Shown here in pieces: positions 224 to 9,490 of a stretch of DNA of 9,732 bases. The notes under the pieces are model-generated. The model was given only the letters and a program-made list of their open reading frames with translations, was not told the DNA's origin and did not search any database. The translations under genes were made by a program, and so were the position numbers. Source of the DNA: a virus. Lineage: Duplodnaviria > Heunggongvirae > Uroviricota > Caudoviricetes. The stretch's first letter is position 1, and every line of letters starts with the position of its first letter. The DNA lies in the IMG/VR virus record IMGVR_UViG_2671180415_000013. One strand, 5' to 3'.

Positions 224-589
224 TCAAATCCCCAGTGAAGTCACCATTGTCCTGAGAACTTGCAGAACGTCATGATCATAACTTCCATCCAAACCGCGAC
301 GGCGAATTGCTTCTCGTATTACCGGAAGCAGTTCGCTGGAAATCTCGGTGCATATTTCACCTGATAATACGCTTGGCTCAAGTGAGAATATTGGTGAACT
401 TACGGTCTTGGTCTCGACAGTTTCAGAGTCAGTGCCAACATTATAAAGCTCAACGAAAGCGGTCTTGATTTTCCGGGCCAGATCTTTTGCTGGCTCGCTT
501 GCAATATCTTTCCCGATTTCTCGCAGCACAGAATGCAATGTATGAGCTGCTGTTTTCTGTACATCAGACGGTAAATCTTTAAATTCCAT
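224..589 (-). CDS. hypothetical protein (about 121 aa), function unknown
   Basis: ORF track 224..601. The internal ATG at 587-589 (MEFKDLPSDVQ...) is preceded on the minus strand by GAGG with a 6-nt spacer, so I prefer it to the ATG at 601. Its start lies 12 nt past the stop of the upstream small ORF. I recognise no family. Confidence 0.5.
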   Translation of the reverse strand: MEFKDLPSDVQKTAAHTLHSVLREIGKDIASEPAKDLARKIKTAFVELYNVGTDSETVETKTVSSPIFSLEPSVLSGEICTEISSELLPVIREAIRRRGLDGSYDHDVLQVLRTMVTSLGI

Positions 590-600
590 CGTCAGCCTCA

Positions 601-753
601 TCAGTCAGTGTTTCTGGCTAACCAGCAACGCGCGCCAGATTCGGTTTTAAACGTTTTGCTTTTGGTATACGTCATGGCGGTAAACGTTCCATCCTGGTTA
701 GGGAACACGCCGCACACCAGAGATTCGTTGTTGCCAAGATCGATAGTATCCAT
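601..753 (-). CDS. hypothetical small protein (about 50 aa from the internal ATG; the tracked ORF extends to 807)
   Basis: ORF track 601..807. The ATG at 751-753 (MDTIDLGNNES...) is preceded by GAGG with a 5-nt spacer, whereas the ATG at 805-807 has no recognisable SD. The SD-start context (atgaggtcagcATG) closely resembles that of the next gene (atgaggctgacgATG). Short, with no recognised family, so the coding call is weak. Confidence 0.35.
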   Translation of the reverse strand: MDTIDLGNNESLVCGVFPNQDGTFTAMTYTKSKTFKTESGARCWLARNTD

Positions 754-932
754 GCTGACCTCATTTCCCCTTAACGCCGGGGTGGCGGAACAAAAAACCT
801 GCTGCATAGTTAAAGATTGAACCCTGCCGTCATGTTCTTACGCCTCGGGCTGGCTACTTAACCCCTGACCACTGTCTGGTAACTCGAAGTATTGCCCTGC
901 ATTCTGTGGGGCGGGGTGGGTTGACGCCTGAA

Positions 933-977
933 ACAATAGCATCATTATTTTTTTTGATGTAAATAGCATCGCTATTG
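933..977. promoter_or_regulatory. Operator-like palindromes in the intergenic region downstream of the toxin gene (possible OL-like repressor sites)
   Basis: 961-977 AAATAGCatcGCTATTG is an inverted repeat with 6-bp arms and a 3-bp spacer. 933-949 ACAATAGCatcATTATT is a degenerate copy. Both resemble the perfect palindrome AAATAGTatcACTATTT at 2072-2088 in the repressor/cro intergenic region. Confidence 0.4.
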
Positions 978-990
978 TTTTTTGTTGGGG

Positions 991-1016
991 CAAGAAAAAA
1001 CCACCCTAAGGTGGTT
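991..1016 (-). terminator. Rho-independent terminator for the leftward repressor-antitoxin-toxin operon
   Basis: On the minus strand the stem AACCACC / GGTGGTT (plus coordinates 999-1016, 4-nt loop) is followed by TTTTCTTG. It lies 17 nt beyond the parE-like stop at 1033. The plus-strand reading of the same hairpin has no T-tract. Confidence 0.5.
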
Positions 1017-1032
1017 CTGTCGGCGGGAATAA

Positions 1033-1323
1033 TTAACTGTTTTTGCCTGGATACTGTCTTCGAGAATGCACAATATTTACTACTTCTATGCTTGATGCTG
1101 TTACTCGGTAAAGGATGATGTAGTTAGGATGAGTTACAATTTCACGAAGACCAAGAACTCGCTCGCTTGGAGGATACAGGTAAGGATGCTCTGTGAGCGG
1201 CAAAACGGATGTTTCAATTCGAATTTTCATTCTGCGTGCTGCCGCGGGATTTTCTTTAGCTATGTAGGCTACGATCTGGCGCAAATCATCACGAGCAGAT
1301 GGTAGCCATAAAACGGGTAACAT
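1033..1323 (-). CDS. parE: Type II toxin-antitoxin toxin, ParE/RelE family (96 aa)
   Basis: Translation MLPVLWLPSARDDLRQIVAYIAKENPAAARRM...LREIVTHPNYIILYRV...IEVVNIVHSRRQYP has the size and conserved pattern of ParE toxins. Its ATG (1321-1323) overlaps the stop of the upstream antitoxin ORF by 1 nt (TAATG). Confidence 0.85.
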   Translation of the reverse strand: MLPVLWLPSARDDLRQIVAYIAKENPAAARRMKIRIETSVLPLTEHPYLYPPSERVLGLREIVTHPNYIILYRVTASSIEVVNIVHSRRQYPGKNS

Positions 1324-1517
1324 TATTCACCTCTGTGAGTTGCAGCAGCAATTTGGGCAATAATTTGTTCCATTTCCGCCATTACCTCATCATGCGGAAT
1401 CGCCGGGCGGGGATCCGCGAGGCTTGCTGCTACTTTGGCCCGCAGCCATTCGTTGTAACTATTTTCTTGCTCAACTGTCTCAAATTCTGAAACCATTGGG
1501 GAAAGGACTGTACTCAT
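1323..1517 (-). CDS. paaA: Antitoxin, PaaA2-like small acidic antitoxin partner of ParE (64 aa)
   Basis: The 64-aa product MSTVLSPMVSEFETVEQENSYNEWLRAKVAASLADPRPAIPHDEVMAEMEQII... sits immediately upstream of, and is translationally coupled to, the ParE gene. SD GAGGAG lies 9 nt upstream of the ATG. It resembles the PaaA2 antitoxin of E. coli O157 prophage paaR-paaA-parE modules as I recall them. Confidence 0.7.
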   Translation of the reverse strand: MSTVLSPMVSEFETVEQENSYNEWLRAKVAASLADPRPAIPHDEVMAEMEQIIAQIAAATHRGE

Positions 1518-1536
1518 TTTACATATCTCCTCTGAT

Positions 1537-2037
1537 TTAGGCGCGACGGCCTTTTTGTGCAGCTAACCACCGCGCAACCGTACGATCCATTGATTCTTTT
1601 TTATCTTTCATCTCCTGAAGCATGTGTTCTTGATCTTCTTTCGGAAAAGCTCTGAACGTATGGATTAAATCTCGTTCCATCGGCTCTACGGCAAACGGTA
1701 GTTCATCCTCTGTTTGTTCTGTGTCTGCTGGTAATGCGACTATGTTATCTTGCTGTGGTTCTCGACAATACATCCTTGCAATTTGCAGCAAATCTACCAT
1801 GTCTGGCCTGATTGACTCAGGGGGAACTTTCAGTAAGCCAGCAAACTTTAGAACAGCCTCAAGGTTTAGTGGGGTTTGACCATTTAGGTAGTGACTTACC
1901 GCCCCTTGTGTTGAAAACCCCATAATTTCCGCCGCACGTTCCTGAGTCAATCCCAACTGAGATTTCTTTGCCATCCAGATTTCTTTCAGTCTTCTGGCGG
2001 CGTTGAGGTCGGTGTCTGACAATGATTTTCTTTTCAT
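1537..2037 (-). CDS. paaR: Prophage repressor with a lambda cI-like N-terminal HTH domain and no LexA/S24 peptidase domain (PaaR2-like), about 166 aa
   Basis: The N-terminus MKRKSLSDTDLNAARRLKEIWMAKKSQLGLTQERAAEIMGFSTQGAVSHYLNGQ... aligns by eye with the lambda cI N-terminus (...[47 protein letters not shown]...). The C-terminal ~85 aa are acidic and too short for an S24 domain. The tracked ORF extends to a GTG at 2067; I prefer the ATG at 2035-2037 from the cI alignment, but the start is uncertain. It is first in the operon with the antitoxin and toxin. Confidence 0.8.
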   Translation of the reverse strand: MKRKSLSDTDLNAARRLKEIWMAKKSQLGLTQERAAEIMGFSTQGAVSHYLNGQTPLNLEAVLKFAGLLKVPPESIRPDMVDLLQIARMYCREPQQDNIVALPADTEQTEDELPFAVEPMERDLIHTFRAFPKEDQEHMLQEMKDKKESMDRTVARWLAAQKGRRA

Positions 2038-2148
2038 ACATCCAATTCTAATAAGATTGCTAATCACTTTGAAATAGTATCACTATTTACTTTTAAAAAT
2101 AACAGTGCTATTAATTATGCATTGGTAACACATCACATAGGGCGGATT
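2038..2148. promoter_or_regulatory. Divergent immunity control region (PRM/PR-like) with operator palindromes
   Basis: Perfect 17-bp palindrome AAATAGTatcACTATTT at 2072-2088, and a related degenerate site at 2097-2115. A candidate rightward promoter is TTTACT (2086-2091), 17-nt spacer, TATTAA (2109-2114), overlapped by both sites. It lies between the leftward repressor gene and the rightward cro-like gene. Confidence 0.6.
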
Positions 2149-2412
2149 ATGAATCTTGGAGAATATTTGCATCATTTTCATATAACCCAGAGTTCATTTG
2201 CTGAGATTGTTGGCGCATCCCAAGGGATGGTCAGCCACGTTATAACGGGGCGTGCAAAACTTACAGGAGAAAAAATATTACGTTGGTGTGAAGCAACGGG
2301 ATGGGTGGTGACCCCACATGAGATTGACAGTAAAACCTACCCCAACCCAACTGACGGCTTGCCTGCTGAGTTTCAGGCTAACACACAACCATCGGCGGGG
2401 GTTGATTCATGA
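2149..2412 (+). CDS. Cro-like HTH regulator (YdaS-like), about 87 aa
   Basis: MNLGEYLHHFHITQSSFAEIVGASQGMVSHVITGRAKLTGEKI... is a small HTH protein transcribed divergently from the repressor. The tracked ORF starts at a TTG at 2122; I prefer the ATG at 2149, preceded by agggcgg. Its TGA stop overlaps the ATG of the next gene (ATGA at 2409-2412). Confidence 0.7.
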   Translation: MNLGEYLHHFHITQSSFAEIVGASQGMVSHVITGRAKLTGEKILRWCEATGWVVTPHEIDSKTYPNPTDGLPAEFQANTQPSAGVDS

Positions 2413-2834
2413 AAATCAAGCATGAACACATCCGCATGGCGATGAAAGCCTGGGCGCATCCGGACGGTGAAAAAGTTCCGGCAGCTGAAATAACCAGGGT
2501 TTATTTCGAACTGGGAATGACGTTTCCGGTTCTGCATAACGACAGCAAGCACAACACGCTTTATCTCAACACCCAAAAGATTTTCCGTTGGCTGGATAAA
2601 GACACCCCTGACGCTGTTGAAAAAATTCAGGCGTTGTTACCTGCGATCGAAAGGGCAATGCCACCTCCGCTGGTGGCTCGAATGCGCAGCCACAGTTCAG
2701 CTTATTTTCGGGAACTGGTGGAGACGCATGAACGACTGGTGAGAGACGCTGATGATTTTGTCGCAGTGGCAATCGCCGGTTTCAATCAGATGAACCGTGG
2801 TGGCCCGGCAGGAAATGCTGTGGCAGTACATTGA
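2409..2834 (+). CDS. YdaT-like protein (CII functional analogue in Rac-type prophages), 141 aa
   Basis: The N-terminus MKIKHEHI... and the ~140-aa size match my recollection of Rac YdaT. It sits directly after the cro-like gene with an ATGA overlap. Family assignment is from memory. Confidence 0.65.
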   Translation: MKIKHEHIRMAMKAWAHPDGEKVPAAEITRVYFELGMTFPVLHNDSKHNTLYLNTQKIFRWLDKDTPDAVEKIQALLPAIERAMPPPLVARMRSHSSAYFRELVETHERLVRDADDFVAVAIAGFNQMNRGGPAGNAVAVH

Positions 2835-3976: not shown

Positions 3977-4725
3977 ATGAAAAACATTGCGGCAGCCGGG
4001 GTTCTTGAACGTATTCACAGNNNNNNNNNNNNNNNNNNNNNNNNNNNNNNNNNNNNNNNNNNNNNNNNNNNNNNNNNNNNNNNNNNNNNNNNNNNNNNNN
4101 NNNNNNNNNNNNNNNNNNNNNNNNNNNNNNNNNNNNNNNNNNNNNNNNNNNNNNNNNNNNNNNNNNNNNNNNNNNNNNNNNNNNNNNNNNNNNNNNNNNN
4201 NNNNNNNNNNNNNNNNNNNNNNNNNNNNNNNNNNNNNNNNNNNNNNNNNNNNNNNNNNNNNNNNNNNNNNNNNNNNNNNNNNNNNNNNNTGTGTTCAGCG
4301 GTAAAACCGGCACCGGGAAAAATCACCTTGCAGCGGCGATGGGTAACCGGCTGATGGCGAAGGGGCGCAGCGTGATTATCGTCACCGAGTCTGATGTCAT
4401 GAGCGTGTTGCATGACAGCTACGACAACGGCAAATCCGGTGAAAAATTTTTACAGGAGCTTTGCGGGGTTGATTTGCTGGTCCTGGATGAAATAGGCATT
4501 CAGCGGGAGACGAAAAACGAGCAGGTGGTATTGCACCAGATAATTGATCGCCGGACAGCATCACTGTGCAGTGTCGGGATGTTAACAAACCTGAATCATG
4601 CCGCAATGAGCACGCTTCTTGGTGAGAGGATTATGGACCGCATGACCATGAACGGTTGTCGGTGGGTGACGTTTAACTGGGATAGCTGGCGTTCAAATGT
4701 CAGCTTTCCGGGAGTTGTGAAGTAA
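3977..4725 (+). CDS. dnaC: DnaC-like helicase loader (AAA+ ATPase), interrupted by an N-run
   Basis: The N-terminus starts MKN like E. coli DnaC. After the gap, FSGKTGTGKNHLAAAMGNRLMAKGRSV...LLVLDEIGIQRETKNEQVVLHQIIDRR...GMLTNLNHAAMSTLLGERIMDRM...WVTFNWDSWRS closely matches DnaC Walker A/B and C-terminal motifs as I recall them. SD GGGGGTGAT precedes the ATG at 3977, and the O-like stop is at 3968-3970. The two sides of the gap are in different frames, so the N-run length is not the true length. Confidence 0.85.
4021..4289. other. Run of 269 N (assembly gap or masked segment) inside the DnaC-like gene
   Basis: Literal n characters in the sequence. Confidence 0.99.
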
Positions 4726-5487: not shown

Positions 5488-5892
5488 ATGGCAAAAGTAT
5501 TTACACAGGAAGAGCGGGAAAAAATTAAGGGGCAGGTTGTTGAACTCGTACGCCAGAGTGGGCGCGAGACGTTACGACAACTGGAAGCTAAAANNNNNNN
5601 NNNNNNNNNNNNNNNNNNNNNNNNNNNNNNNNNNNNNNNNNNNNNNNNNNNNNNNNNNNNNNNNNNNNNNNNNNNNNNNNNNNNNNNNNNNNNNNNNNNN
5701 NNNNNNNNNNNNNNNNNNNNNNNNNNNNNNNNNNNNNNNNNNNNNNNNNNNNNNNNNNNNNNNNNNNNNNNNNNNNNNNNNNNNNNNNNNNNNNNNNNNN
5801 NNNNNNNNNNNNNNNNNNNNNNNNNNNNNNNNNNNNNNNNNNNNNNNNNNNNNNNNNNNNNNNNNNNNNNNNNNNNAGTGCCGGAAGAGTGA
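5488..5892 (+). CDS. hypothetical protein whose interior is lost in an N-run (N-terminus MAKVFTQEEREKIKGQVVELVRQSGRETLRQLEAK...)
   Basis: ATG at 5488 follows a G-rich stretch. The frame appears continuous across the N-run to a TGA at 5890-5892 only if the N-run length is exact, which is unknown. Product unknown. Confidence 0.35.
   Translation: MAKVFTQEEREKIKGQVVELVRQSGRETLRQLEAKXXXXXXXXXXXXXXXXXXXXXXXXXXXXXXXXXXXXXXXXXXXXXXXXXXXXXXXXXXXXXXXXXXXXXXXXXXXXXXXXXXXXXXXXXXXXXXXVPEE
5594..5876. other. Run of 283 N (assembly gap or masked segment)
   Basis: Literal n characters in the sequence. Confidence 0.99.
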
Positions 5893-6578: not shown

Positions 6579-8411
6579 ATGGCCCGCATGTTTGATACAT
6601 TAGGATTTTACATTATGAATGTGCAACATTTTGATTTTTTTACAGATAATGAGTTTTCTAATCTGGAAAGATATCAAACTTGTAAAGCCATGGCCAAAGG
6701 TTATGCGGGCAATTACAAAACCGGGCAGTCAAGGTTGATGCATGCCCGCTCATACTGCTTCAGCATCGTAGCTGCATATTGGGATACCCTTGCAAAAAAG
6801 CAAAAAAGCAGCATTAAAATGAGGGCAGTACCGCACACTGTTTACATAGAAGACATTCCATGTGATGCACGCGAGCTCGCTGAACGAACAGGTGAGCTTA
6901 TTGCTCAATTTCCGGCGGAGGACGCTGGATATCTGATTGGGTCAATTTATACGGTAATGCTGCCATCCGCTTACCGTTCGGAATTGGGGGCTTACTATAC
7001 CCCCCCACCTTTGGTAGCGCGTCTCTTGGACCTGGCTGAAAAGTCTGGTGTTGATTTTTCTCATGCATCGGTTATTGATCCTGCGTGTGGTGGCGGTGCA
7101 TTTTTGGCACCAGTAGCCATTCGAATGTTAAAAAAAGACAAGGGGTCTTCCCCTGAATGGATGTTGAGGAGAATCAGTCGTCGTTTAAAGGGGATAGAGA
7201 TCGATCCATTTGCGGCTTGGATGAGTTTGGTATTGCTCGAATCTGTACTAATGCCACTATGTGTAAAGGTAAAACGTAGATTGCCTGAAGATACAATTAT
7301 TGTTGCTGATGCGCTTCAGCAAGATAAATTTTCTGGTTATGATCTTGTGGTAGGGAATCCGCCTTACGGACGTGTCACTCTCGATATTAAAACGAGAGAA
7401 AAATATTCTCGTTCGTTATTTGGTCATGCAAATCTATATGGATTGTTCACCGACTTAGCTGTTCGCATGGTTAAAGAGAAAACAGGAGTTATTGCATTTC
7501 TTACGCCAACTTCTTTTCTTGGTGGGCAGTATTTCACCGCGCTGCGAACCCTTTTGACCGAAAAAACTACTCCGTATGCCCTTGATTTCGTCACTGACAG
7601 GGATGGGGTCTTTGACGATGTTCTCCAGGAAACAATGTTGACAGCATTCAAGGCGGGAGAACATAAAGTTCGGGCCCAGGTATCCTCACTTGTCCCTAAG
7701 GGGTTGAACAAAGCAAAAATTGAGAAAATAGGTAATGTTGATATAGAAAAAGGTGGAGCAACGTGGCTTTTGCCACGCGTTAAAGATGATGCCTGTTTTC
7801 TTAATGTATTAAAACAGATGTCTACGCGTTTAGCTGATCTGGGATACTCAGTCTCTACAGGTCAGTTAGTCTGGAATCGATTTAAGTCGCAGTTGCGTAC
7901 GACGAAAGGAAAAAATAGCTACCCATTAGTCTGGGCGGAATCAATAACTTCAGCTGGTTTTCGTTTTAGTGCAGACAGAAAAAATCATGTTCCCTATATC
8001 GATATAACCCCACAACAGGGTTTCCTTGTGACAAAATCTGAATGTGTGCTTGTTCAGCGGACAACATCGAAGGAACAGGACAGAAGGATTTTAGCGGCAA
8101 TTTTACCTCAGGGATTTATAGATGAAACTGGTGGCGTAGTAGTTGAAAACCATATTAATATTGTATATTCAAACGGATTGTTCTCTGCGGTTCGCCCTGA
8201 TGTTATTGATATGCTACTTAATTCGCATGTTGTCGATCGGGCGTTCAGGTGTATAAGCGGAAGTGTTGCTGTTTCGGCCTATGAATTGCATTCAATCCCG
8301 TTGCCTTCTCTGGAGCAGGTGATGGAGATTCAATCGTTAATTGATGCTGGCGTCCACAGACGGATTATTGAGAGAACTATCGCTGGTTTCTATGGAGTGA
8401 TGATTGCATGA
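6579..8411 (+). CDS. N6-adenine DNA methyltransferase, gamma-class (Eco57I/TaqI-like N6_Mtase fold) with a C-terminal target-recognition region
   Basis: Motif order X then I then IV: GAYYTPPPLVARLL (motif X), VIDPACGGGAFLAP (AdoMet-binding motif I), DLVVGNPPYGRV (catalytic NPPY motif IV), followed by about 300 aa of putative TRD. The start is uncertain among ATGs at 6579, 6588 and 6615. The TGA stop overlaps the ATG of the next gene (ATGA at 8408-8411). Confidence 0.9.
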   Translation: MARMFDTLGFYIMNVQHFDFFTDNEFSNLERYQTCKAMAKGYAGNYKTGQSRLMHARSYCFSIVAAYWDTLAKKQKSSIKMRAVPHTVYIEDIPCDARELAERTGELIAQFPAEDAGYLIGSIYTVMLPSAYRSELGAYYTPPPLVARLLDLAEKSGVDFSHASVIDPACGGGAFLAPVAIRMLKKDKGSSPEWMLRRISRRLKGIEIDPFAAWMSLVLLESVLMPLCVKVKRRLPEDTIIVADALQQDKFSGYDLVVGNPPYGRVTLDIKTREKYSRSLFGHANLYGLFTDLAVRMVKEKTGVIAFLTPTSFLGGQYFTALRTLLTEKTTPYALDFVTDRDGVFDDVLQETMLTAFKAGEHKVRAQVSSLVPKGLNKAKIEKIGNVDIEKGGATWLLPRVKDDACFLNVLKQMSTRLADLGYSVSTGQLVWNRFKSQLRTTKGKNSYPLVWAESITSAGFRFSADRKNHVPYIDITPQQGFLVTKSECVLVQRTTSKEQDRRILAAILPQGFIDETGGVVVENHINIVYSNGLFSAVRPDVIDMLLNSHVVDRAFRCISGSVAVSAYELHSIPLPSLEQVMEIQSLIDAGVHRRIIERTIAGFYGVMIA

Positions 8412-9490
8412 ATCTGCCTGTTGTTCCCCCATTGAATGTTATCCGGGAAAGATTACAATTAATTTTCCCTGAAGGGACTGAGAATCGTGGATATTTAATT
8501 CGGGAAATAGCTGCAAAAACAATTTTTGTCATGTTTTATGCTGGTGCGGTTGAGGGGCTGGGGCGATGGATAAGGCCCAGCCAGGTTGTAAGTATGGGAG
8601 ATTCGCAGGCTGCTCTTACTGATGATGCGTCCAGAGAAAGCTGGGTAAAGATGACTTTCTCTAAACAAAAGATAAGGCCTGCTGATGCATGGTATGCGGA
8701 AAATACGCGTGAGCCAATACGTGATGAAACTATAAAAAATGGCCTAATACCTTGCAATGCAATTGTTGAGCGTAAAGGTATACCCACCACATCCTCTCGT
8801 CCTCGTTACAGTTTGAATCGCTCTTTTGCAGCACTCTTTGATGCCGGGCTTGAAGGAGATTCGCTGCTGAGTGCAATAAGTTCCTGGCAAGAAAATCATT
8901 TGAACAAAGCCGCTCTTGCTAGGTTGCGTTTATTGAAATCAGGGGCAGTGATTGCTGCTGATGCCGTAGTCGTCACTTTCCCAAATGGAGAGAAGAGAAC
9001 TTTAGCTCCGGGCCCGTCAAGTACAATAGCTAAGGCCGTCATCGAAGTTTTTGCTCCTAATTTTCTTAAGAATCCAACTGTGCTCTGGTTGTCTGAATCC
9101 GGGAATAAAGTTGTTGCTCAGGATGATGTATTGGCAAAAGCATTGGGGCTGAATATTGATGCCTCAAAAGCACTTCCAGATATTATTTTGATTGATTTGG
9201 GAGAGGACCGAACGGGTTCGGACATGCTTGTAGTTTTCACTGAAGTAGTTGCGACAGATGGGCCTATAAACAGGGAACGAAAAGTTACTCTCACTCATTT
9301 GGCTATTGACGCTGGGTTCAGCGAGAAAAATCTTGCATTCCTTACGGCATTTATGGACAGAAGTGCTCTGCCTTTTAAAAAGGCAATACCAGAATTGGCG
9401 TGGGGATCTTATGCATGGTTTGCTTCTGAACCGGAGCACTTAATTGATCTTCGGGATGGTTATCCGGTAAAGATCAGCCAGAGAAAATGA
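8408..9490 (+). CDS. Uncharacterised 360-aa protein translationally coupled to the methyltransferase; candidate cognate restriction endonuclease (possibly BsuBI/PstI-like), unverified
   Basis: Confident as a gene: long ORF, same strand, 4-nt overlap with the MTase stop, GGAG 10 nt upstream, same AT-richer composition as the MTase. The function is inferred only from context; I cannot point to a canonical PD-(D/E)xK motif by eye. The segment DIILIDLGEDRTGSDMLVVFTEVVATDG is a possible degenerate nuclease core. Confidence 0.6.
   Translation: MNLPVVPPLNVIRERLQLIFPEGTENRGYLIREIAAKTIFVMFYAGAVEGLGRWIRPSQVVSMGDSQAALTDDASRESWVKMTFSKQKIRPADAWYAENTREPIRDETIKNGLIPCNAIVERKGIPTTSSRPRYSLNRSFAALFDAGLEGDSLLSAISSWQENHLNKAALARLRLLKSGAVIAADAVVVTFPNGEKRTLAPGPSSTIAKAVIEVFAPNFLKNPTVLWLSESGNKVVAQDDVLAKALGLNIDASKALPDIILIDLGEDRTGSDMLVVFTEVVATDGPINRERKVTLTHLAIDAGFSEKNLAFLTAFMDRSALPFKKAIPELAWGSYAWFASEPEHLIDLRDGYPVKISQRK

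Follow-up and report, generated by a model that had tools for sequence, protein, structure and literature searches.

In the E. coli prophage CP-933P, the regulators PaaR2 and YdaS both footprint the right operator (OR) region, and a left promoter (PL933P) situated beyond parE2, with the operators OL1-3 and promoter hexamers identical to those of PR, is repressed about 100-fold by PaaR2 or YdaS (PMC8630535, Jurenas et al. 2021). The paaR2 gene is leaderless, PaaR2 is octameric in solution, and PaaR2, not the toxin-antitoxin (TA) complex, is the regulator (PMC8630535). In the prophage Qin, the promoter dicBp upstream of ydfA is repressed by DicA (PMC10448788, Ragunathan et al. 2023). Here we describe a related immunity region in the IMG/VR virus record IMGVR_UViG_2671180415_000013. 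The whole stretch analysed (9,732 nucleotides, hereafter the window) derives, from position 92 on, from the early region of a lambdoid prophage of E. coli, of the same kind as Qin, Rac and CP-933P. Its repressor operon is flanked by four 15-17-bp palindromes, which, judging from their sequence and placement, are very likely the left (OL) and right operators of a lambda-type prophage switch.

The architecture of the window matches the paaR2-paaA2-parE2 / ydaS-ydaT immunity region of CP-933P (PMC8630535). The operon between the two operator pairs is a paaR-paaA-parE operon, the three-component toxin-antitoxin system of CP-933P-type E. coli prophages. It is encoded on the minus strand and consists of the 166-aa immunity repressor (1537..2037, with the start codon as annotated in a 99% identical relative), a PaaA2-type antitoxin (1323..1517; PF21217, E 3e-23) and a ParE-family toxin (1033..1323; PF05016, E 1.8e-17). 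The antitoxin and toxin thus lie downstream of a helix-turn-helix (HTH) regulator in one operon, with a single terminator after parE. On the plus strand, divergent from the repressor gene, are genes for an 87-aa Cro-like HTH protein, the YdaS analogue (2149..2412; HTH_3 match under the Pfam cut-off), and for YdaT, the analogue of cII (2409..2834; PF06254). A regulator with a PaaR-type C-terminal domain and no S24 peptidase, and a divergent ydaS-ydaT pair with a YdaT operator at its junction, place the region within the CP-933P type.

The two perfect palindromes lie where the initial annotation had placed them. On the right, between the divergent repressor and cro-like genes, the central site AAATAGTATCACTATTT (2072..2088, core 2073-2087) has perfect 7-bp arms; on the left, the promoter-distal site AAATAGCATCGCTATTG (961..977, core 962-976) has perfect 6-bp arms. 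Each has one partner with a single mismatch 25-27 bp away. The right partner, which the annotation had implied by extending the site region to 2115, is the PR-proximal site with core AATAACAGTGCTATT at 2098-2112 (17-mer 2097..2113). The left partner, with core AATAGCATCATTATT at 935-949, had been described as a degenerate copy at 933-949; such a copy is present, although the 17-mer is symmetric in the register 934-950.

Searched as AATAGYNNNRCTATT, the consensus AATAGY-N3-RCTATT has two exact matches in the window against 0.00 expected, a count reached by none of 200 shuffles. With up to two mismatches there are exactly four matches (1.13 expected), all within the two intergenic regions. The annotation had also suggested scanning the whole prophage, where a motif common at chance frequency would have spoken against operators. 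In 41 kb of the intact 99% relative RMDEC465, from integrase to tail genes, matches with at most one mismatch are confined to the same four sites (0.19 expected; 0/100 shuffles reach the observed count). A de novo repeat search, with no pattern supplied, recovers the palindrome family and reveals that, over about 45 bp, the left region is an inverted copy of the right; it finds no other repeat common to the two regions of the window. At three mismatches the motif does fall to background level (15 matches in the window vs 10.2 expected), as it would if the recurrence were a product of chance in AT-rich intergenic DNA. That explanation has a negligible probability and is already refuted by the shuffles and by the identical positions of the sites in 49 loci (see below).

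The palindromes overlie predicted promoters directed away from the repressor operon. PR (2086..2114, plus strand) reads TTTACT-17-TGn-TATTAA, and PL (933..963, minus strand) has the -35 hexamer TTTACA (963-958), a 19-bp spacer and the TGn-extended -10 hexamer TATTGT (938-933); both were placed by eye, from their alignment with each other, and by analogy. PL and PR form one co-linear module in inverted orientation, AATAG-N5-CTATTTAC...AAATA-N5-TG(C/G)TATT. In both modules, whose promoters are predicted and under the scan thresholds, the consensus operator lies over the -35 (961..977 at PL, 2072..2088 at PR) and the imperfect operator over the TGn-extended -10 (934..950 at PL, 2097..2113 at PR). 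The predicted repressor promoter PRM (2045..2073, minus strand; TTCAAA-17-TAGAAT) is listed by the promoter scan. The repressor ATG starts 7 nt downstream of the PRM -10, so the repressor mRNA is probably leaderless. Beyond the toxin gene, the initial annotation had placed an operon terminator ahead of the left sites. Such an intrinsic terminator of the repressor-antitoxin-toxin operon is found at 992..1018 (minus strand; 9-bp stem, UUAG loop and U-run); it is overlooked by a simple scan and was confirmed by folding (hairpin 997-1018, dG -15.1 kcal/mol, z -3.3).

In lambda, the operator centres relative to PRM are at about -42 and -66, and at about -20. The right operator centres of the window, 2080 and 2105, are at -43 and -68, counted from the repressor ATG at 2037, and correspond to the OR2 and OR1 positions; the central right site is thus at the activating position of the divergent PRM. 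At the OR3 position, centred at -20 of PRM and 23 bp from the central site, lies a candidate weak third site, AATAAGATTGCTAAT (2050..2064). With three mismatches it is inseparable from chance, and it is kept as a candidate for its position only.

The sites were compared across a homoimmune set of 49 related loci, comprising 216 kb of IMG/VR contigs and four E. coli genomes; the IMG/VR contigs added 44 loci with repressors 77-100% identical to that of the window. All four sites are present in 49/49 loci at fixed positions from the repressor ATG (in the direction of the window coordinates: +43, +68, about -1055 to -1068 and about -1080 to -1096), and stray matches with two mismatches amount to only a handful in the 216 kb. 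The left pair is 25 bp apart in most relatives and 27 bp apart in the window. The sole locus that fails the regular expression, L046, has intact sites with a 1-nt insertion between them. In this locus the OL insertion (TGTTAAATAG) adjoins the PL -35, and the left operators, both intact, are 26 bp apart.

Independently of the regular expression, 37 distinct sequences differing by about 20% overall were aligned. The AATAG and CTATT columns of both perfect sites are invariant in this alignment, while the central 3-5 bp have two or three alleles each, a diversity like that of unconstrained columns. Invariant half-sites with free centres are, as a sequence pattern, the signature of a dimeric HTH operator. 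In a supporting count, 37/40 outer positions are invariant vs 7/20 inner positions (Fisher p 5e-6), the outer positions also exceeding the other intergenic columns (213/330 invariant; p 1e-4); the regular expression behind this count fixes some of the outer positions, and the alignment made without it is the unbiased version and gives the same picture. The HTH segments of the repressor and the Cro-like protein are identical throughout the homoimmune group, whose members are 78-100% identical.

The central right operator occurs as 11 alleles, which differ solely in the central 5 bp. Its symmetric inner pair, positions 2078 and 2082, reads T..A in the window and C..A or C..G in near-identical relatives, and these two positions are among the most variable columns of an otherwise almost invariant near-identical group. 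We considered, and rejected, that the operator centres are hypervariable or under diversifying selection: the diversity within groups is no higher than in other freely varying columns, so the centres are simply unconstrained.

In complete E. coli genomes the immunity region is found at 99% identity in two and at about 80% identity in about 68, so that about 70 of 5,426 complete genomes, including O104:H4 and O145:H28 strains, carry this immunity type. A scan of GTDB genome contigs with the repressor gave no confirmed locus, the phage collection contains no named phage with the immunity region (phage Evi comes closest, with 31% coverage), and in the literature no paper was found that describes this immunity type.

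Heteroimmune relatives have the ydfA side, the TA genes and the repressor C-terminal domain (CTD) in common with the window and differ in their N-terminal domains (NTDs). Three heteroimmune types each have their own repeat at both OL and OR; in the L005 type, 27 8-mers are common to its OL and OR, vs 0 between the L005 type and the window. Against L050, L053 and L055, three of four heteroimmune comparators, the window loses similarity at 923, some 10 bp short of the outer left site, and regains it at 1304-1384, within the TA genes and the repressor CTD; similarity is absent over 1684-2337 (repressor NTD, OR and the N-terminus of the Cro-like protein), and is back at 2338-2398. With L005, the fourth comparator, the alignment (76%) extends from 610 to 1664, so that no left break is seen, while the gap over 1665-2337 is present. 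The left sites are immunity-specific DNA, because similarity breaks beside the outer left site. As read from these alignments, they are co-inherited with the DNA-binding domains despite the common block between them. Operators of one sequence family thus flank the repressor gene and, among heteroimmune relatives, co-vary with the DNA-binding domains of the repressor and the Cro-like protein, as expected of lambdoid OL and OR.

This pattern bears on the proposal that the left copy is a duplicated or recombined PR-like promoter module, with the palindromes carried along and unbound in vivo. PL and PR are indeed one co-linear inverted module, so that part of their similarity reflects promoter elements. 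Against this, those positions of the left half-sites that lie beyond the -35 and -10 hexamers do not change across 20% divergence while the centres vary, the left block switches with the repressor NTD in heteroimmune types although the TA genes and CTD between them are common, and the PL analogues of CP-933P and Qin are repressed experimentally. An unbound left copy is therefore very improbable. Even less probable is that the sites bind some other factor, whether YdaT, PaaA2 in complex with ParE, or a host nucleoid protein (IHF or H-NS, for example). In favour of such factors are the AT-richness of the regions and the autoregulation that conventional type II antitoxin-toxin complexes exert on their promoters. 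However, the sole family match of PaaA2 is to the short PaaA2 stability-determinant family, PaaR2 is the regulator in CP-933P, and a host-factor site would not switch with immunity type. YdaT is ruled out as the AATAG-site binder, its published operator being different and separately present at 2402-2419.

One of the comparators, L005 (O157:H7 strain Z1833), had been a candidate for CP-933P itself. It was rejected as such, because the primers in the CP-933P paper give other PaaR2 and YdaS starts, and it serves as a comparator only. The true PaaR2 starts MQKKEIRRL and the true YdaS MTLKEFIK, which fits the L050 type, so L005 represents a different prophage type of O157. L050 and L051 (2321-3125), of this CP-933P-like type, carry two tandem regulator genes upstream of paaA/parE, encoding a 123-aa PaaR2-like protein and a 132-aa HTH protein, both with the PaaR-type CTD. 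At least four NTD types have the PaaR-type CTD and the PaaA/ParE pair in common, suggesting that DNA-binding domains are exchanged as modules.

The repressor of the window is, by homology, a chimera of a lambda CI-type NTD and a PaaR-type CTD, with no peptidase. Residues 2-81 are homologous to the lambda repressor NTD (PDB 1lmb, E 2.9e-9), the basic N-terminal arm is included in this homology, and the PDB matches end at about residue 90. Acidic residues align with Glu34 and Asp38 of CI, which form its positive-control patch. At the other end, residues ~103-166 show homology to the PaaR-type regulators of L050, with 41% and 68% identity across the final 50-64 aa; only this CTD aligns with the PaaR2-like protein, to which the NTD is not detectably related. 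HTH_3 is the only kind of Pfam match, with no match to Peptidase_S24, so that the repressor has the N-terminal HTH of autocleavable lambda CI/LexA-type proteins and lacks their S24 self-cleavage domain. The HTH segment of the Cro-like protein is invariant in homoimmune groups and different in L005, and this protein very probably binds the AATAG operators too.

The palindromes might instead be operators for the Cro-like protein only, with the repressor recognising another sequence elsewhere in these regions. A change of operator type is accompanied by a change in the Cro HTH as much as in that of the repressor, and comparison alone cannot separate the two proteins. Yet the DNA-binding domain of the repressor is a lambda CI homologue, to which 17-bp dyads 23-25 bp apart are suited, the repressor and Cro proteins of lambda and CP-933P use overlapping sites, and the left and right regions have no other repeat in common. 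A Cro-only role thus has a very small likelihood, and operators for the repressor remain our preferred reading. The OL/OR-like arrangement that the initial annotation had proposed stands, in view of the flanking operator family, the predicted outward promoters, the 49 loci, the switching with HTH domains and the CI homology.

The binding, PRM activation, cooperativity and looping that we infer may be outlined as follows. Dimers of the 166-aa repressor would bind AATAGY-N3-RCTATT through the lambda CI-like HTH domain. Occupancy of the right pair would cover the -35 and -10 of PR and shut off cro-ydaT and the replication genes, and the perfect right site, at -43 of PRM, would autoactivate the leaderless PRM as lambda CI does at OR2. 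On the left, the inverted copy of the ~45-bp operator/promoter module, past the operon terminator, would cover PL, which is predicted to drive the early-left operon from ydfA, on to dicB and recombination genes in intact relatives. Repression of PR and PL would be by promoter occlusion, and the repressor would bind cooperatively to pairs of sites about 25 bp apart. An OL-OR loop of 1.1 kb, held by the PaaR-type CTD, would be possible, because PaaR2 is octameric.

Several points weigh against this reading. The sigma-70 matches of PL and PR are too poor for the simple promoter scan that lists PRM. At OR, conservation extends over most of the intergenic region, and promoter constraint therefore partly confounds the half-site invariance seen there. 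The sequence supports no more than two sites per side, against three in lambda. Looping assumes that the common CTD is what mediates the PaaR2 octamer. Finally, with the 19-bp PL spacer, the early-left genes may no longer be expressed in this copy.

This last point concerns a T-run in the PL spacer, which is T8 in the window (948..955) and T6 in relatives without the insertion sequence IS1. An IS1 end occupies the first ~91 bases of the window and abuts the prophage at ~91/92, truncating the leftward (PL) operon; the same IS1 copy is the breakpoint of four IMG/VR contigs. The T8 allele is also found in L006, L007 and L010, and T9 in L011, all of the IS1-bearing lineage; T6 is found in L001, L008, L009, L013 and L014, and T5 in L012. 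T8 and T9 are thus confined to the IS1-carrying lineage, the near-identical IS1-free L008 and L014 having T6. The length of the run shifts the PL spacer from 17 to 19-20 bp and the left operator spacing from 25 to 27-28 bp; in the window the spacer is 19 bp and the operators are 27 bp apart because T8 replaces T6, adding two T. PL is probably crippled by this spacer. Together, the spacer and the IS1 truncation suggest an early-left arm that is decaying or silenced with its operators intact, probably a decaying remnant.

The initial annotation had predicted that two small leftward genes are under repressor control. Both genes exist: a ydfA-like DUF1391 gene, the first of the PL operon (601..753, minus strand; PF07151, E 3e-28; annotated ydfA in relatives), and a 125-aa ORF, the second (224..601, minus strand; no family match). 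Their control by the repressor has direct experimental precedent in Qin and CP-933P, but in the window PL is probably crippled and the operon is cut by IS1. We also consider, as an unlikely possibility, that the PL T-run is a slippage-prone heritable switch, which would silence the early-left operon or uncouple it from the repressor, and so aid host domestication of the prophage. In such a switch, one or two extra T would lengthen the spacer to 19-20 bp and rotate the left operators out of phase; if true, it would control an operon whose products, in intact relatives, include toxic cell-division inhibitors.

Upstream of ydfA, the PL leader (754-923, minus strand, ~170 nt) is 88-96% conserved even in heteroimmune prophages, and its transcript starts with the C-rich tract ACCCACCCCGCCCCAC. 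A structured RNA, a terminator or a known RNA family in the conserved leader (754-930) was considered and rejected, since Rfam gives no match and the predicted fold is no more stable than that of shuffled sequence (z +0.78); a role in Rho loading or antitermination is speculation.

Compared with CP-933P, the window has the same gene order (ydfA-type left arm, PL, terminator, ParE, PaaA2, peptidase-less HTH regulator, divergent ydaS-ydaT), a homologous regulator CTD, a regulator gene that is here probably leaderless, and one operator family at PR/PRM and PL with matching promoter elements. It also has the YdaT operator at the ydaS/ydaT junction. This site, TTGATTCATGAAAATCAA (2402..2419, ydaS stop/ydaT start), is an exact match to the published YdaT O_M consensus (PMC9986795). 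It has the form TTGATT-N6-AATCAA, has the same placement in CP-933P and is outside the AATAG family; its presence at the junction implies that PRE-like control is conserved. The two systems differ in that the operators of CP-933P are GTTTAGTAA-type repeats, whereas here they are AATAGY-N3-RCTATT; the NTD is of the PaaR2 type there and a lambda CI homologue here; and the HTH of the Cro-like protein differs. Three or four sites per side are reported for CP-933P, whereas two are supported by the sequence here. The window thus lacks the immunity specificity of CP-933P (PaaR2-type NTD and GTTTAGTAA-type operators), and because NTD and operators differ, the locus is a heteroimmune relative of CP-933P, not the same element.

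The likeness to lambda lies in the homologous repressor NTD, 17-bp dyad operators 23-25 bp apart, the positions of the right sites relative to PRM, a predicted leaderless PRM, a terminator ahead of OL/PL, and an accessory operon downstream of the repressor gene (rexAB in lambda, the TA pair in the window). In contrast to lambda, the repressor has no S24 autocleavage domain, and direct RecA-mediated induction is therefore not expected. The oligomerisation domain is of the PaaR type, the half-site sequence differs, the OL-OR distance is 1.1 kb vs ~2.4 kb, and YdaT takes the place of CII. No N gene or nutL was identified downstream of PL in the window. As in Qin, a short repressor without a peptidase domain would control the PL analogue, and the first operon gene is ydfA (DUF1391), followed by ydfB, ydfC and dicB in the intact relative L001/L057. 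Unlike in the window, the Qin repressor DicA is a different repressor with different operators, the Qin repressor operon has no TA pair, and induction is via the Rem antirepressor, whereas no antirepressor was identified in the window.

Past ydaT, the plus strand encodes replication genes, a DUF1627 gene and a PstI/BsuBI-type restriction-modification pair. The latter is a type II pair in the early-right region (6579-9490), comprising an N6-adenine methylase (Eco57I/N6_Mtase type) and a BsuBI/PstI-family endonuclease. Masked N runs at ~4020-4290 and ~5600-5870, in the replication-gene region, leave incomplete ORFs in the record.

The OL/OR arrangement is already published for the sister prophage CP-933P with another operator sequence, so the novelty is modest, and the layout itself will not surprise a phage specialist. 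What the finding would define is the operator sequence and the operator/promoter layout of a second, heteroimmune specificity of the PaaR-type switch. It presents this switch as modular, with a constant TA pair and CTD, interchangeable DNA-binding domains and matching OL/OR blocks. It may also offer a test bed for whether a cooperative, looped and self-activating switch in the style of lambda can be built from a non-cleavable repressor that pairs a lambda-like DNA-binding domain with another oligomerisation domain, and for how such a prophage is induced.

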